Assembly (NCBI GenBank): GCA_963810935.1
Contig: CAWEPK010000017.1
Location: 64,001-128,000, forward strand
DNA length: 64,000 nt
Origin: an uncultured delta proteobacterium
GTDB taxonomy: Bacteria > Desulfobacterota > Syntrophorhabdia > Syntrophorhabdales > WCHB1-27
Direction: 5' to 3'
Positions 38,028 to 43,326 of the stretch are shown in pieces (positions within the stretch are counted from its first letter, which is position 1; each line of letters begins with the position of its first letter). The position numbers were made by a program, and so were the translations under genes. Below the pieces are notes generated by a model. It made no database searches. It was not told where the DNA came from and saw only the letters and a list, made by a program, of their open reading frames with translations.

Positions 38028-38711
38028 CTACCGGCGGTCGTCTTTTCTTTTCCTGGCCTTGAGGATGACAACGCTCGATGCGTAAAGAAGGGCCGAGAGG
38101 ATAAGGAGGGCAAGCACGTCGGGACGCAGCAGGAAGGAGAGGCCTGCGGCGCCGTGCGGCCATTTGTGGATTACTACGATGAGTGGGGCCATAGCGTAGA
38201 ACCTCATGATCCTCGCCACTTCCTTGCCGCTTATGCGCCGCCACGAAAAACCGGCGAAGAGGTGCGCGCCGCGGACGGAATGGCGGTCCGGGAAGACGGG
38301 AGGGGTACCGAGCATATAGGCGACGGACCCCTCGCTGTGCATCTCGGTGAGGGTGCCCTCTTCCTTCCTGAAGGTCGGGCCGTAGCTCCAGAAGAAAAGA
38401 AAAGGATAAAGGAGCAGCAGGTAGCGGTTGCCGCTGAGCACGCAAAAACTCGAATCGATAAGGTAGTTGGCCAGGTAGTACGGGTGCCGTACTATCCCGT
38501 AAACACCCTCCCTGCAAAGGACCCGGTTCCTTATCAGCACGCCTTTGGTAATGAAGTGCATGGAGCTGCCCAGCACGAGAAGCAACAGGGCGACGCCTGT
38601 CTCGACCACCGTCAGCGGATAGAAAAACGCAGAAGCGGCGCAGAGCAGCAAGACCGCGTCCCGCAGCCCGCTCCTTGTCAGAAAACCCTCGTCTTTTTTC
38701 TTAATCGCCAT
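38028..38711 (-). CDS. Isoprenylcysteine carboxyl methyltransferase/PEMT-family membrane protein
   Basis: GVYGIVRHPYY motif followed by KEE and hydrophobic segments. Confidence 0.7.
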   Translation of the reverse strand: MAIKKKDEGFLTRSGLRDAVLLLCAASAFFYPLTVVETGVALLLLVLGSSMHFITKGVLIRNRVLCREGVYGIVRHPYYLANYLIDSSFCVLSGNRYLLLLYPFLFFWSYGPTFRKEEGTLTEMHSEGSVAYMLGTPPVFPDRHSVRGAHLFAGFSWRRISGKEVARIMRFYAMAPLIVVIHKWPHGAAGLSFLLRPDVLALLILSALLYASSVVILKARKRKDDRR

Positions 38712-38841
38712 CCTCTCCACAGCCTTTTGCACTTTTTGTAGTCAGCAGACCCATAACAATATCGGCTTGGCCCGGAGGAATCAAGTAAAAAGCACCGACG
38801 CACAATCCCCAATCACCCCCAGTTGCCGCTTGCTCCTTTCT

Positions 38842-38870
38842 CCGTCACCCTGGCGGAGGCCAGGGTCCCA
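38842..38870 (+). repeat. REP-like palindrome family C, left arm interrupted by IS element 1
   Basis: CCGTCACCCTGGCGGAGGCCAGGGTCCCA; same CCGTCA-stem-loop architecture as 28981. Confidence 0.7.
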
Positions 38871-40379
38871 TATAGCTGACAGTTGTCAAGCAGATTGTGC
38901 CTGCCCCTTTTTCTTTTTGTCTTTACATCCTATCAATCATCAATGTTATAAGAGGGCTCCGGGGGACGGGACTCATCTTGCGACGTTTGATCATTCTCAT
39001 ATTCGCGGATTTAACCGCATGACTTGGCTTCGTCACGGGAGCTGCCCTCGGTCTAGGTTCTTGAGTTCGGCTTTCGCCTTATCTATATGGACTCTCCGTG
39101 GGTTCTCCCAACGCGGTCGCGTCCCTCCGTATGCCCTGGATTCGCCTCCTTAAAGTAATGTCATTGTTCCGCCGCCACTTCCCTCGCTATGGCCCATATG
39201 AACCCCGTAAGCTCCCGTGCTATGGCTACGGTGATCTTCGTCTTCAGCTTTCCTCTCGCCATGAGCCTGCGGAACCTGCCGCAGAGCCTTACTTGAGCCT
39301 TCCAGGCAATATCGAGGACAGACTTTGGCAGGCCTTCATGACGCTTAAGCAGATGTCTGCTCACACGGGCAGGGAAGCCATAGGCATGGGAAGCTTCAAT
39401 GAGCACCCGGCGAACATGGCCGTTGCCCGTTTTGGTGATGCTTCCCCGGTGGACGCTCTCCCCCGTGGAGTGCTCCGAGGGGACGAGCCCAAGATAGCCC
39501 ATCAGTTGCCGGGGGTTCTCGAAACGGCTCATGTCGCCGATCTCTGCGATGGTAGTTGCCGCAACGATCGGGGCCACGCCTCTTAAGGCTTGCAGGGCCT
39601 TGACGACGGGGTTCAGGCGCCAGTCGGGAAGGAGCTTTATTATCTGGTCGGTCAAACGAGCCACTCGCTCCGCACATGCAGTGACAGTATTGATATACTC
39701 CTGCAATACAATCTGCTGGGACGGATGAGGAAGGGCTATATCAGAGAGCCATCGTATATGCATAGGCGTCCATGACGCCTTGCCGGGATACCGTTTCCCA
39801 TAACGGAGGAGAAAGGCGTTCAACTGATATCGCGCGGTCTTCGACGCCTTGGAGGCATCTTCTCTCGCCCTGGTCAGATCGCTCATGGCCTCGTCCTCCT
39901 CACGGGGGACATAGACGGCCGTGAGTTCACCCGCGCGCTCCAGGCGCGCAAGGGTCTCTGCATCCCTTCGGTCGTTCTTGATCCTGTCTCCGCTCTTATG
40001 TGGAGTTTTGGAAGGAGCGACGACCTTGCAGGAAAACCCCTTCCTGGTCAGGTGGCGGTATATCTCATACCCGCAGGGTCCGGCCTCATAGACAAAGCGC
40101 AAGGTTATCCCCCCACTGATGAGCTTCCTTACCGCCCTGTCCAGGGCGTCCATCGTACCGCCTATCTTGCCGTAGTGCCTGACTTCCATCGCTCCATCCA
40201 CATCTGCCGTTGCAATCTGAATGGAGTTCTTGTGCACATCGAGTCCTACAATTGTGATAGAATCTTTCACGGCCTGCCTCCTTATTAGTGGCTCTGTACT
40301 TGGTTTAGCTGCCAGAGTATAACCCACGGTCATAAGGGGCAGGTCCTTTCGTTCCTTCAACTGTCAGCTATTATGTCTA
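38870..40379 (-). mobile_element. IS110-family (IS1111-like) insertion sequence, element 1
   Basis: 14-bp perfect sub-terminal inverted repeats ATAGCTGACAGTTG (38872-38885 and 40358-40371); no target duplication; ~275-bp non-coding region downstream of the transposase. Confidence 0.9.
39161..40270 (-). CDS. IS110 family transposase/recombinase
   Basis: DEDD domain VGLDVHK..YEAGP..KNDRRDA; RFENPRQLMGYLGLVPSEHSTG..ITKTGN; GTG start after AGGAGG. Confidence 0.97.
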   Translation of the reverse strand: MKDSITIVGLDVHKNSIQIATADVDGAMEVRHYGKIGGTMDALDRAVRKLISGGITLRFVYEAGPCGYEIYRHLTRKGFSCKVVAPSKTPHKSGDRIKNDRRDAETLARLERAGELTAVYVPREEDEAMSDLTRAREDASKASKTARYQLNAFLLRYGKRYPGKASWTPMHIRWLSDIALPHPSQQIVLQEYINTVTACAERVARLTDQIIKLLPDWRLNPVVKALQALRGVAPIVAATTIAEIGDMSRFENPRQLMGYLGLVPSEHSTGESVHRGSITKTGNGHVRRVLIEASHAYGFPARVSRHLLKRHEGLPKSVLDIAWKAQVRLCGRFRRLMARGKLKTKITVAIARELTGFIWAIAREVAAEQ

Positions 40380-40403
40380 GGTCGCTCCAAGCCGAGGAAA
40401 TAC

Positions 40404-40432
40404 CTGGATACCGGCTTTCGCCGGTATGACGG
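40404..40432 (-). repeat. REP-like palindrome family C, right arm
   Basis: CTGGATACCGGCTTTCGCCGGTATGACGG, inverted relative to 38842-38870. Confidence 0.85.
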
Positions 40433-40467
40433 AGGCAAGGCGAATCGCCGACTACCGAATACCCGCA

Positions 40468-40566
40468 GTTGCAGCAATTGGCCCCCGGCCCAATTGCTGC
40501 CGTGGTCGGAGGAGCGCCTCAAGGAATTGCGATAGGCGGATGAAATGGGTGCCTTGCCGCCCGGAG
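40468..40566 (+). repeat. Repeat family B, left part of the copy interrupted by IS element 2
   Basis: Aligns with 26417-26515 up to CCGGAG. Confidence 0.85.
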
Positions 40567-40671
40567 TCTCTATGCTATAAAAGCCCTCTTCCACAGGGGC
40601 GGATAAAAAGGCTACCCTCTTTCTCTTAAGCGATGGATGCACATCGCAAACCAAGGAAAGGGAGGTAGCCA

Positions 40672-41748
40672 ATGGAGATTCATAGGGTACAGGATTTTGT
40701 GGTTGAAGGTAAAGAGGTTTTTATCGGTTTGGAAGACTCAAAGAAGACCTGGAAGATAGCAGTTCGGTGTGACAGGATGGTGATCCACCAGGTATCCATG
40801 GAGGCAAAGTATGTCTTGCTGAAGCAATACCTGAGAAACAGGTTCCCCGGTTGCACGGTCCATTTGATGTACGAAGCAGGCTTCAAGGGGTTCAACCTTC
40901 ACGATCTTCTTGCCGAAGACGGCATCGACTGCGTGGTGATCCCTCCCCATATGGTGACGGAGCCGAAGGCAAACAAGGTTAAGACCGATAAAAGGGATGC
41001 AAACCGTCTCGCCCGCATCCTGGAGAGCCACGATTACAGGGACCCCTGCTGTGTACCCGACAAAGAGAGGAGGGAGGACCGGCAGGTAAGCCGTACCATA
41101 ATCGCCATACAGAAGGATATCATCGGTAACCGCAACCGCATCCGCAAGCTCCTCGACTTTCACGGGATCGAGGTCCCCTTTGCCGGTAAGAGCGAATGGG
41201 GGCGAAAGGAGTTCGAGGGTCTTCGGACATTACCCCTGAGCGATCCCTTAAGGGCAGCTCTGGGCTCGCTTTTGACCATACTGGAGGAACTGTGGGGCCA
41301 GCGTGCGGTCTTGAGGGACTATCTCCGGGGTCTGTGCAAGAAGGAGCGTTATAGAAAGCCCTACGAGGTCGCAAAGAGCATCCCCGGCATAGGGTGGTTC
41401 ACAGCCATCCGCCTGATATTAGAGCTGGGGGAGGATCTCTCCCGTTTCGGAAGCGGGAAGAAGATCGCAGGCTTCGTGGGGTTGGGCTGCAGCGAGCATT
41501 CGACGGGCCAGACCGAACGGAAAGGTCGTATCACGGGCATGGGGTCGGGGTTCATACGGCATATCCTGGTCGAGAATGCCTGGATAGCGATCAGAAAGGA
41601 CCCGGCCCTGCTGTCCAAGTTCTCACGGGTATGGCGGTCGAGCGGCAGCAAGAAGAAAGCCATAGTGGCAGTTGCCCGTACTCTTATTGTGCGCCTTCGG
41701 GCCTGCATGCTTTCGGGCAGGCCTTATACGGTCGGAGTTATTAGATAG
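40672..41748 (+). CDS. IS110 family transposase/recombinase
   Basis: FIGLEDSKK..MYEAG..KTDKRDA; SIPGIG..ELGEDLSRF..GFVGL..EHSTG..GRIT; KKKAIVAVAR. Confidence 0.95.
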   Translation: MEIHRVQDFVVEGKEVFIGLEDSKKTWKIAVRCDRMVIHQVSMEAKYVLLKQYLRNRFPGCTVHLMYEAGFKGFNLHDLLAEDGIDCVVIPPHMVTEPKANKVKTDKRDANRLARILESHDYRDPCCVPDKERREDRQVSRTIIAIQKDIIGNRNRIRKLLDFHGIEVPFAGKSEWGRKEFEGLRTLPLSDPLRAALGSLLTILEELWGQRAVLRDYLRGLCKKERYRKPYEVAKSIPGIGWFTAIRLILELGEDLSRFGSGKKIAGFVGLGCSEHSTGQTERKGRITGMGSGFIRHILVENAWIAIRKDPALLSKFSRVWRSSGSKKKAIVAVARTLIVRLRACMLSGRPYTVGVIR

Positions 41749-41749
41749 G

Positions 41750-42060
41750 ATGAGCCTGACGGAAGAGGACCTTAACAGAACAAGGGCGTACAACGCCACG
41801 TACGCTGTATTAAAGAACGGCCCGGAGTATGTTGACGCCCGTTCCTCTTTTTTCGAAAAGCAGACACATGTGGGTTGGACCACGAATAGCAGCTTGCAAA
41901 GAACCTCCTCTTCAAGAAAGGCTCGCGCTTCGGCCGCGGACCTGTGTAAGGTCGTCGGCCTCGCGCTCGCTATCGGATATGTACTCACTAATAACAGAGG
42001 GAAAGTCATGGACTGACCCATAAAGAAAAGGGGGTAGCAAAAGCCCGCTGGAAGAATCCG
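41750..42060 (+). ncRNA. Putative bridge/seek RNA of IS110 element 2
   Basis: Stem GGGCGT-A-CAAC/GTTG-ACGCCC encloses ACGTACGCT (41798-41806) and GCCCGGAG (41820-41827), which match the two target flanks. A second loop carries ATAGCAGC (41886-41893), matching the right end. RNA boundaries approximate. Confidence 0.75.
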
Positions 42061-42077
42061 TTGACTTTTATCATAGC

Positions 42078-42261
42078 AGCGTACGTCGGTACGTCGGAGG
42101 GCGCAAGGCGAGCAGGGCGCCGCATCCGTCATATCAGTTGAAAGTAGGTTTGCCGGGTGCCCGCACGGTAAAAAGCGTGTTGAAAAGGCGCCACCTTGCA
42201 TGCGGGTGGTCCGCAGCAGGCACGAGTCCAAACCTTGCCACAACATCCGCCTTTGCCTCTA
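42078..42261 (+). repeat. Repeat family B, right part of the interrupted copy
   Basis: GCGTACG..GTACGTCGGAGGGC..CAGGGCGCCGCAT..GAGTCCAAACCTTGCCACAACATCCGCCTTTG aligns with 26516-26620, with a longer internal segment. Confidence 0.85.
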
Positions 42262-42264
42262 TCG

Positions 42265-43326
42265 CTACCACCTGAAGTCCTGTGTCGTCCAACCCGACAT
42301 ACACCTTTCGCGCATCCGCGCATACATCACCGGCAGATCCGCCGCACTCGCCCCCATCAGCGGCGCAATGCACTTCATTGCCCTTACCGCTCCCCACGCC
42401 CTTTGTCTCCCGTAGCCCGTGTGCGCCTGCGCCATATACCGCGCAGTCTTATACAGCGCGTACCCCCTCATCCGCCGGCGCGCCTCCGAATCGTGCGCAG
42501 CATGCTTGCATACCACGTACGCCCTGTTCAGTACCTGCATGACGCCCCATGCGGTCCCATTGACGCGCGCCTCCGGCGCCCGGTTATGGAAGACCCGGGC
42601 GTTTTCCGCATCGACCAGGAGGTGGCTGCCGAGGACTGCAAGGCTCGCATCGTAATCCTCGAACAGGGCATACGTACCCAGCGTCTCGTCGAAGCCCGTT
42701 TTCCGGATCAGGTCCGCCCTGAAGGACATCCTGAAGCCGGGCAGGGCCGTGGCGGGTGTTGCGCCGGCGGCCGCGAGCCAGGCCGGCCTTCCTATCCTTG
42801 CGCTCCGCGAATCGGCTTCCACAAAGAACGGGTCCGGAAACAGCCTGTATTCCAGGGAATCGATGAAACGGCCGACGGAGAGCTGGAGCTTGTCGCGGAG
42901 GGCCATGCGGTACGCCGGGGGCGCACACCCGGACATGCCGGGCGGCAAGGCGGCAACTTCCGTCCCCCCTACCCCGCCTATCGTCTCTTCCGCGTCCGTC
43001 TCGTAGACGCGCATGACGGAATCGGAAAAACCCGGGAACCAGAGGGCGTCGTCGTCGGGGAACATCGCGACAGGCGAGAGCGCGGCATCGAGCCCTGTGT
43101 TGCGCTGGAGGGAGGAGCCGGGCGCGGACCGCAGCACTACGAGGCGCACACCGGGGGCTACATCCCGCGCGATCTGCGCGACGGTCCTCGCGGCCTCCTT
43201 ATGGTTATCGCTCGAATCGACCACGATGAGGCTGCGGGGAAGGCGCGACTGGGAGAGCATCAGCGGAAGGGAAAGCCGCAGGGCCTCCACCCTGTTTCGG
43301 GTGGCAATGACGATATCGAAATCCAA
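42265..43326 (-). CDS. Glycosyltransferase family 2 protein
   Basis: DIVIATRNR, LIVVDSSD, QRNTG, MFPDDD, GFDE..Y..FEDYD; start (TTG) uncertain. Confidence 0.85.
   Translation of the reverse strand: MDFDIVIATRNRVEALRLSLPLMLSQSRLPRSLIVVDSSDNHKEAARTVAQIARDVAPGVRLVVLRSAPGSSLQRNTGLDAALSPVAMFPDDDALWFPGFSDSVMRVYETDAEETIGGVGGTEVAALPPGMSGCAPPAYRMALRDKLQLSVGRFIDSLEYRLFPDPFFVEADSRSARIGRPAWLAAAGATPATALPGFRMSFRADLIRKTGFDETLGTYALFEDYDASLAVLGSHLLVDAENARVFHNRAPEARVNGTAWGVMQVLNRAYVVCKHAAHDSEARRRMRGYALYKTARYMAQAHTGYGRQRAWGAVRAMKCIAPLMGASAADLPVMYARMRERCMSGWTTQDFRW

Follow-up and report, generated by a model that had tools for sequence, protein, structure and literature searches.

The closest described relatives of the element reported here are the IS1111-type seekRNA elements and the bridge RNA elements IS621 and ISCro4. 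Elements of the IS1111 group have long right ends and, in the passages of Durrant et al. on this group, bridge RNAs are predicted there in 93.0% (Durrant et al., 2024, PMC11208160). For four IS1111-family elements, seekRNAs from the downstream non-coding region have been shown, and in the account given of them the match to the top strand of the target precedes, in 5' to 3' order, the match to the bottom strand (Siddiquee et al., 2024, PMC11187229); the same account includes an S(t)G variant of the C-terminal motif. IS621 has a nine-base left target guide (LTG) and a four-base right target guide (RTG) according to the guide description in PMC11208160. Here, we analyzed a 64-kb stretch of DNA from an uncultured delta proteobacterium (contig CAWEPK010000017.1, positions 64,001 to 128,000), referred to throughout as the window; all coordinates are window positions unless named otherwise. 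Positions 40567-42079 of the window are an IS1111-type insertion sequence of the IS110 family. Judged from sequence comparison, this element very probably selects its insertion site by means of its own non-coding RNA. It is a clear example of a mechanism first described in 2024; the mechanism itself is not new.

The element, its guides and the repeats it occupies

The region 3' of the recombinase gene carries two short sequences that, on direct reading, correspond to the two flanks of the element. Reverse-complementing 42078-42086 gives exactly ACGTACGCT, the sequence at 41798-41806, and GCCCGGAG at 40559-40566 is identical to 41820-41827. Both matches run one base into the element (T41828 = T40567, and G41807 pairs with C42077), and the two target guides, of 7+2 and 6+2 nt, are nearly equal in length and overlap at the AG core. 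The composite ACGTACGCT-N10-20-GCCCGGAG occurs once in the window and was matched in 0 of 100 dinucleotide-preserving shuffles. A second loop lies downstream, where ATAGCAGC at 41886-41893 equals 42073-42080 at the right junction and GTCT at 40566-40569 reads, in reverse complement, as AGAC at 41862-41865. The stems GGGCGT/ACGCCC (41784-89 / 41835-40), CAAC/GTTG (41791-94 / 41831-34) and GTGG/CCAC (41870-73 / 41880-83) all form within the minimum-energy (MFE) fold. The same fold has a closing stem around both loops (41762-69 / 41906-13), which gave no convincing alignment across homologues, and no Rfam covariance model matched at E <= 1 in 38500-42600 on either strand.

Deletion of 40567-42079 yields GCCCGG-AG-CGTACGT, and this exact 15-mer, GCCCGGAGCGTACGT, stands unoccupied at four other places in the genome. 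Joining 42079 to 40567 places TTGACT (42061-66) 17 nt upstream of TATGCT (40571-76). An earlier, sequence-only reading of this DNA had proposed the restored target, both guide strings with their one-base extensions, the second loop with its weaker left-end match, and the junction hexamers; every string and position was confirmed on re-reading. It had also proposed that the guide is programmed against a genomic repeat, which the copies and empty sites described below bear out.

The genome, searched over 21 contigs (4.06 Mb), holds four copies of the element at 99-100% identity, with identical guide regions in all of them; two copies are 100% identical across 1513 bp and have an intact 358-aa frame. 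Insertion is at a short core and duplicates no more of the target than this: all four copies read CCGG-AG, element, AG, flank, and the empty sites have a single AG. The flanks of the four copies are hairpin repeats resembling repetitive extragenic palindromic (REP) sequences. At the window copy the left half is GCCCGGAG and the right half CGTACGT, a perfect guide fit of 15/15. Copy C17:17179 (left AGCCGGAG, right CATACGT) has three mismatches to the guides. Copies C7:15880 (left GACCGGAG) and C5:83380 (left TACCGGAG) both read GCGTACG on the right, with two left mismatches each and a right half that needs a one-base bulge; only 2 of 9 positions fit there if no bulge is placed after the core.

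Across the genome, CCGGAG.?C[GA]TACG has 25 occurrences, most of which fall into three recognisable subfamilies of repeats. In the subfamily on either side of the window copy, the usual reading is CCGGAG-G-CGTACG (7 genome copies), so that the window site is a variant one base shorter, with a perfect guide fit. The genome also holds sites at which both flanks of the window copy abut. Taken from these sequences, the natural target is the loop of a REP-like hairpin repeat family. In a 1718-nt contig from another sample (run X4), the same element has another left flank; on the right it is followed by CGTACGT, which continues into another repeat copy. A joint of 40566 to 42079, present in one contig each of runs X4 and X6, was rejected as evidence of excision, as paralogous empty repeats give the same join. 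No circle joint was found in the contigs of four DNA runs, where rare forms would not show.

Two observations concern the repeats themselves. At least three REP-like hairpin subfamilies have CCGGAG(G)CRTACG…GTAYGTSRAGG in common (40467-40566, 42080-42180 and genome-wide). Relatives of the element in other genomes (e.g., L001, L014 and L027) occupy other positions, or the opposite orientation, of what appears to be the same repeat family.

Covariation of the RNA with target flanks and element ends

Homologues were sought in one genome per species, which gave 58 loci. Uncultured 'delta proteobacterium' and Syntrophorhabdus-type metagenome-assembled genomes (MAGs) account for most of them, and the others come from Chloroflexota, Latescibacter, Chitinispirillaceae and further groups. 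Nine loci without an RNA region or in fragments (L023, L039, L051, L052 and L054-L058) are excluded from every count, and 49 hold a recognisable RNA. The RNA alignment comprises the window element and 30 loci, i.e., 31 distinct sequences with 30 distinct target loops. Across the loci the 3' non-coding end is conserved except for the stretch with the target guides. RNAalifold, run on the 31 sequences, returned three helices, namely the outer stem of the target loop (10 pairs), its inner hairpin (3) and the donor-loop hairpin (4), with compensatory changes in 13 of the 17 pairs. The outer target stem is 98.7% paired and shows compensatory changes at 9 of its 10 pairs. When five basal pairs were added, 92.8% of 682 cells were paired, compared to 29.9-40.6% when the 3' partners were slid by 1-3 columns, and both sides had changed in 17 of 22 pairs. 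The observed pairing and covariation scores were reached by 0 of 500 shuffles; the measure of 'further pair types' was non-significant (74 of 500). Helices 2-4 are 94.6-98.7% paired, and the basal helix is weak (75.5%) because a distant group differs there. Only the gene strand accommodates the G-U pairs in the stems (e.g., 11 at columns 52/110 and 53/108).

Two of the loci are of note in themselves. L058:250-760, a non-autonomous remnant, is a deletion derivative in which the 5'-UTR hairpin and approximately 45 recombinase codons run directly into the retained part of the RNA, namely the 3' portion of the target loop followed by the donor loop. L020, on a 3.7-kb contig of a MAG labelled Nitrososphaerales archaeon, is a 73%-identical copy, while all other close relatives are bacterial; a binning error is the more likely explanation, rather than transfer.

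We compared the target loops with the flanks of their own elements, using, from the 49 RNA-bearing loci and the four genome copies, the 18 nt that precede CTATG on the left and the 16 nt that follow CATAG on the right. Each distinct loop was represented by the first locus in name order that had the flank, and the score played no part in this choice. On the right side (26 elements), the mean exact run was 6.96 for cognate pairs and 3.38 for non-cognate pairs, and runs of at least 7 were found in 16/26 cognate and 8/650 non-cognate pairs. On the left side (25 elements), the means were 6.60 and 3.60, with runs of at least 7 in 13/25 and 17/600 pairs. For either side, 0 of 10,000 permutations reached the observed value, and the same count was obtained when conserved edge bases were removed or when only 17-18 close relatives were used. 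As examples, the L002 group has the guide AGUAUGCU and a flank of AG followed by CATACT, L001 has the guide GAGUGUACU and AG followed by TACACTC, and L021 matches its flank at 11/11 positions. The top-strand match is 5' of the bottom-strand match in the aligned homologues as well. A loop kept unchanged despite other targets, which the sequence-only reading had named as an outcome that would count against it, did not occur: in homologues that have other targets, the same columns hold different loops. The test that it had called for, folding together with guide/target covariation, was run on 30 distinct homologous RNAs and was positive for the stems, for the target loop against the flanks and for the donor loop against the ends.

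The 3' strand of the donor loop has the layout ATAG-N-core. In 25/25 elements, six of them with a base other than C, N is the base that follows CATAG in the element's own right end. The loop's core bases are unlike the right junction in 7/25 elements, as would be expected from the use of a target with a different core. On its 5' strand, the donor loop follows the left end: across 25 elements, the cognate mean is 4.76 and the non-cognate mean 3.45, and 0 of 10,000 permutations reached the observed value. In all 22 elements for which both ends were available, the joined ends build TTGAC[AT], a spacer of 16-18 nt and a TATGNT-like hexamer; the spacer is 17 nt in 17/22, among them the window element.

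As a separate observation on the junctions, the right-junction bases are GA, AA, AA, AC and GA in L022, L024, L027, L041 and L042/L049, where the donor-loop core is AG or GG. Where the right-junction bases differ in this way, the left junction keeps the donor core (e.g., L027), a pattern that suggests insertion at targets whose core was mismatched.

The recombinase, the proposed cycle and its rivals

The 358-aa protein matches the Pfam models PF01548 (DEDD_Tnp_IS110, E 1.6e-9) and PF02371 (Transposase_20, E 6e-18), and it scores 173.6 bits against the NCBIfam model NF033542 'IS110 family RNA-guided transposase' (cut-off 140). An AlphaFold model built from 20 relatives reached a mean pLDDT of 75.9 and a pTM of 0.69. 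Its ten best PDB matches in Foldseek are chains of IS621/ISCro4 recombinase-bridge RNA-DNA complexes (E 1.3e-11 to 1.6e-10, TM 0.49-0.59). At the level of sequence, phmmer with the single protein found nothing among the PDB sequences, and with a profile of the 20 relatives the match was confined to the Tnp domain of IS621/ISCro4. Relatives at E <= 0.001 number 1862 in a 90%-clustered collection, where the nearest has 78% identity, and a 50%-clustered library holds 11,810 relatives. Identity to annotated transposases is at most 39% among the plasmid-collection matches listed (all 1440 records are below 60%), and the only named transposase among those listed is ISHvo9-like, at 29.5%.

The active site was aligned across 131 proteins, comprising the window protein, 129 full-length representatives and the protein of a neighbouring element. 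E68, D106 and D109 of the D-E-D-D tetrad are present in the window protein, and these columns read E in 130/131, D in 126/131 and D in 131/131, respectively. Position 21 is D in 124/131 and E in 6/131, including the window protein, in which a carboxylate is kept as Glu; the sequence-only reading of GLED in place of GxD was correct. Members of this clade read GLEDSK, once GLEV, with D22 directly after E21. In the C-terminal motif, GLGC----TG, position 278 is S in 117/131 and T in 13/131 (T in the window protein), and position 273 is P in 124/131 and C in 3/131 (C in the window protein). The profile alignment places T278-G279 on the S-G of the IS621 'YESG' motif, whose Ser we take to be the nucleophile.

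The anatomy of the element is given in Table 1.

Table 1. Features of the element and its target in the window.
Feature	Positions	Strand	Description
Insertion sequence	40567-42079	+	1513 bp, one AG core copy counted at the right end; copy alignments stop at these bases
Left end (LE)	40567-40671	+	105 nt
Recombinase gene	40672-41748	+	358 aa; RuvC-like domain E21-E68-D106-D109, coiled coil, Tnp domain T278-G279
Right non-coding end (RE)	41749-42079	+	331 nt, 3' of the gene; structured RNA region 41778-41897
Target left half and core	40559-40566	+	GCCCGG + AG (core 40565-40566); same as 41820-41827; the other three copies read xxCCGGAG
Left subterminal inverted repeat arm	40570-40583	+	CTATG[CT]ATAAAAG; holds -10-like TATGCT (40571-40576); conserved among homologues
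5'-UTR hairpin	40610-40670	+	Arm GGCTACCCTCTTTCTCTT (40610-27) pairs with AAGGAAAGGGAGGTAGCC (40653-70); covers Shine-Dalgarno GGGAGG (40660-65)
Target-binding stem-loop	41778-41844	+	Basal GAAC/GTTC; outer stem GGGCGT-A-CAAC / GTTG-ACGCCC; both target guides flank the inner hairpin 41807-41818
5' target guide ACGUACGCU	41798-41806	+	Complements top strand, core and right flank (AG CGTACGT, 42078-42086)
3' target guide GCCCGGAG	41820-41827	+	Same as left flank and core, hence complements bottom strand
Donor-binding stem-loop	41860-41897	+	Inner hairpin GUGG/CCAC (41870-73 / 41880-83); 5' strand CAGACAC (41861-67), 3' strand AUAGCAG (41886-92), the latter the same as right element end and core
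Additional GC-rich hairpin	41925-41966	+	MFE fold; behind both guide loops
Two inverted copies of left-end blocks	42027-38 AAAGGGGGTAGC; 42044-55 CCCGCTGGAAGA	+	Mirror 40611-22 and 40587-98 (inverted-repeat search)
Right terminus	42061-42079	+	-35-like TTGACT (42061-66); subterminal inverted repeat arm CTTTTATCATAG (42065-76); C; core AG (42078-79); conserved among homologues
Target right half	42080-42086	+	CGTACGT; other copies CATACGT or G+CGTACG

The arms of the subterminal inverted repeat each lie 3 nt inward from the element ends and match at 12 positions, 5+7 around a 2-nt indel; split in this way, the repeat was not listed by an ungapped repeat finder. The similarity extends over approximately 60 nt, since LE (40567-40627) is collinear with the reverse complement of RE (42020-42079) in three blocks: first the subterminal repeat, then TCTTCCASMGGG and lastly GCTACCCYCTTT. 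This last block is the anti-Shine-Dalgarno (anti-SD) arm of the conserved 5'-UTR hairpin, an arrangement recognised by eye in homologues, so that RE carries the SD look-alike AAAGGGGGTAGC. The idea that in a read-through transcript the RE block 42027-38 might capture the anti-SD arm and so release the SD was considered and dropped: folding leaves the SD equally buried in three transcript contexts (P(unpaired) 0.17-0.19). Sequence like that of the additional GC-rich hairpin was seen by eye in several homologues, and L002-L010 and L028 have an unrelated insert instead.

From the work on IS621 and ISEc11, the following cycle can be proposed for the element. Excision would release it as a circle, in which the abutted right and left ends build the junction promoter, and transcription from there would run through the recombinase gene and then the 3' non-coding end. 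The 3' end of this transcript would fold into the two stem-enclosed internal loops, presumably in complex with the recombinase. The target loop would pair with both target strands, ACGUACGCU with the top strand of AG-CGTACGT and GCCCGGAG with the bottom strand of GCCCGG-AG, the two overlapping at AG, and the donor loop would likewise pair with the joined element ends (…ATAGC-AG-TCTC…). A recombinase tetramer, with the E-E-D-D site of the RuvC-like domain and Thr278 of the Tnp domain, would then exchange strands at the AG core and leave the circle inserted with AG at both sides.

The Pfam and NCBIfam models, the fold, the layout, the guide order and the covariation support the view, already put forward from the letters of the sequence, that this is a divergent IS110-family member with its RNA in the 3' end. 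Several findings weigh against site selection by the element's own RNA. A perfect match to the guides is found at only one of the four copies; three mismatches occur at another, and the remaining two require the one-base bulge that separates core and right half. In the donor loop of the window element, the 5' strand fits the element's own left end at just 5/7 positions, four of them contiguous (AGAC, 41862-65). There is little or no guide-flank match in L019 (right 2), L030 (3 and 3), L041 (right 3), L028/L025 (left 3) and L001/L014 (left 4), all of which are counted in the mean runs; the misfits of L019, L030 and L041 may be secondary rearrangements, decayed copies or assembly joins. Two of the four genome copies have frameshifting single-base indels, one with an additional A and another with six single-base deletions plus some substitutions, which may reflect decay or assembly error. 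The confidence of the protein model is moderate (pLDDT 75.9), and a Glu in place of the first catalytic Asp, together with a Thr in place of the Ser nucleophile, makes the activity of the site a matter of prediction. A sigma-70 scan found no promoter inside the integrated element (40400-42250), and without an internal sigma-70-like promoter the supply of RNA before excision is unexplained; the 13 sequencing runs listed include no RNA run.

Some of these points can be read differently: the architecture could be real and the copies in this genome no longer mobile. We consider this unlikely. The frameshifts and the missing internal promoter would fit it, as would the SD buried in its hairpin and the perfect targets still unoccupied; yet the two copies without a single difference over 1513 bp and with an intact frame point to recent movement, the X4 contig shows the element at a different occupied site in another sample, and all catalytic columns are filled. 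A second alternative, that the RNA picks the target while the protein recognises the ends through the subterminal inverted repeats, would make the donor-loop matches by-products of conserved sequence. It appears quite improbable to us. The one freely varying right-end base is mirrored in the loop without exception, the 5' strand of the loop tracks the left end, and the donor loop has the hairpin-in-loop geometry of the target loop. What this alternative has in its favour is that the ends are strongly conserved and offer little variation for testing, that the 5' donor strand of the window element fits imperfectly, that the three-block similarity of LE and RE could represent protein sites, and that the seekRNA paper, in its account of guide matching, describes target matches only (PMC11187229). 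Finally, that the flank matches arose by chance or from a captured repeat fragment, with the protein alone recognising the site, has next to no probability: the target is a common repeat in the genome and fragments of it are frequent, but the two halves in the RNA are swapped in order and on opposite strands and are therefore no copy of the repeat, the composite pattern is absent from the shuffles, and homologues with other targets carry other loops in the same columns.

Selection of the site by the element's RNA is our preferred reading, and a further-reaching proposal can be attached to it. This deep-branching clade could be a mechanistically distinct bridge recombinase, with a Glu-Glu-Asp-Asp site and a Thr nucleophile, near-symmetric guides and a natural tolerance of a one-base bulge between core and right half, or one in which the end similarity couples translation to the state of the element; we regard this as doubtful, if conceivable. 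Sites in the +1 register are found at two of the four genome copies and at the L015 element. If bulge tolerance were true, the register of the right half would be elastic and the crossover point would be set by the left guide alone. As for the ends, it is a possibility that the three-block similarity of approximately 60 nt, with its anti-SD arm, couples translation of the recombinase to the element state.

Neighbouring elements and comparison with described systems

A second, unrelated IS1111-type element lies on the minus strand at approximately 38865-40374, 190 nt to the left of the main element. Its open reading frame (39161-40360) encodes a 399-aa IS110-family protein that is 28% identical to the recombinase of the main element. 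Its subterminal inverted repeat is perfect over 14 bp (ATAGCTGACAGTTG / CAACTGTCAGCTAT), TTGACA lies close to its right end, and its 3' non-coding end holds ACCTAGAC (left flank and core) and CCAGGG (reverse complement of the right flank). This element is single-copy in the genome and is located at CCTA-GAC-CCTGG in another hairpin repeat, of approximately 60 nt (40375-40438, CCTCCGTCATACCGGCGAAAGCCGGTATCCAGG…), of which the five other copies are all empty. The genome contains IS110-family elements of at least five different types. Of 16 matches to the model, 9 exceed the cut-off, and one of the types, of 316 aa, has four identical copies.

For the host genome, these findings explain REP-like repeats as landing pads for at least two different elements side by side. 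More generally, they show that raw sequence directly yields the guide code of an IS1111-type element, which covariation can then test. The four copies, together with the empty sites, amount to a small natural specificity profile that spans a perfect site, one with three mismatches and sites with a 1-nt bulge. A rather distant, well-documented clade, abundant in Syntrophorhabdus-like and other uncultured anaerobes, is added to the bridge/seekRNA recombinases, and its Glu/Thr active-site variant and longer right guide are of possible interest for orthologue screens in genome engineering.

The IS110-family elements ISPpu9 and ISPpu10 of Pseudomonas putida can be likened to the window element from their description in passages of PMC12288879. 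As here, several copies lie inside repetitive extragenic palindromic sequences, and ISPpu9 has a small-RNA gene downstream of its transposase gene. In the same description, the ISPpu9 RNA, Ssr9, is reported as dispensable for transposition and the circles form without a hybrid promoter, whereas the window element has guide-like loops and a conserved predicted junction promoter.

With IS621 and ISCro4, as presented in passages of PMC11208160 and Hiraizumi et al. (2026, PMC13626964) and in PDB entries 8wt6, 8wt9 and 9t56, the window element shares the domain order of RuvC-like domain, coiled coil and Tnp domain and the fold itself (Foldseek E ~1e-11). It likewise shares the two internal loops, target and donor, in each of which two guides meet at a 2-nt core, as well as a junction promoter, predicted here from sequence, and a natural target of REP type. 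The RNA of those elements is in the left end, whereas that of the window element is in the right end, with the guide order reversed; the core here reads AG on the strand of the gene and CT on the opposite one, and the target guides of 7+2 and 6+2 nt differ from the nine-base LTG and four-base RTG of IS621. The window protein, at approximately 20% sequence identity, has Glu21 for the first Asp and Thr278 for the Ser.

The IS1111 elements with seekRNAs (ISEc11, ISPa11 and ISKpn4), in the features that PMC11187229 sets out for them, resemble the window element in their long non-coding region downstream of the recombinase gene, in their subterminal inverted repeats (7-17 bp across the group) and in two short target matches on opposite strands that overlap in the target, the top-strand one being 5'. 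They also have a promoter at the circle junction, for which the window element has the sequence potential, and an S(t)G-type C-terminal motif. Compared to these elements, the window protein, at 358 aa, is longer than the range of 330-350 aa given there, its motif GLGC----TG has Cys where Pro is usual, and the inverted repeat is split by the 2-nt indel. In addition, the family of the window element shows a donor-binding loop that covaries with the element ends.

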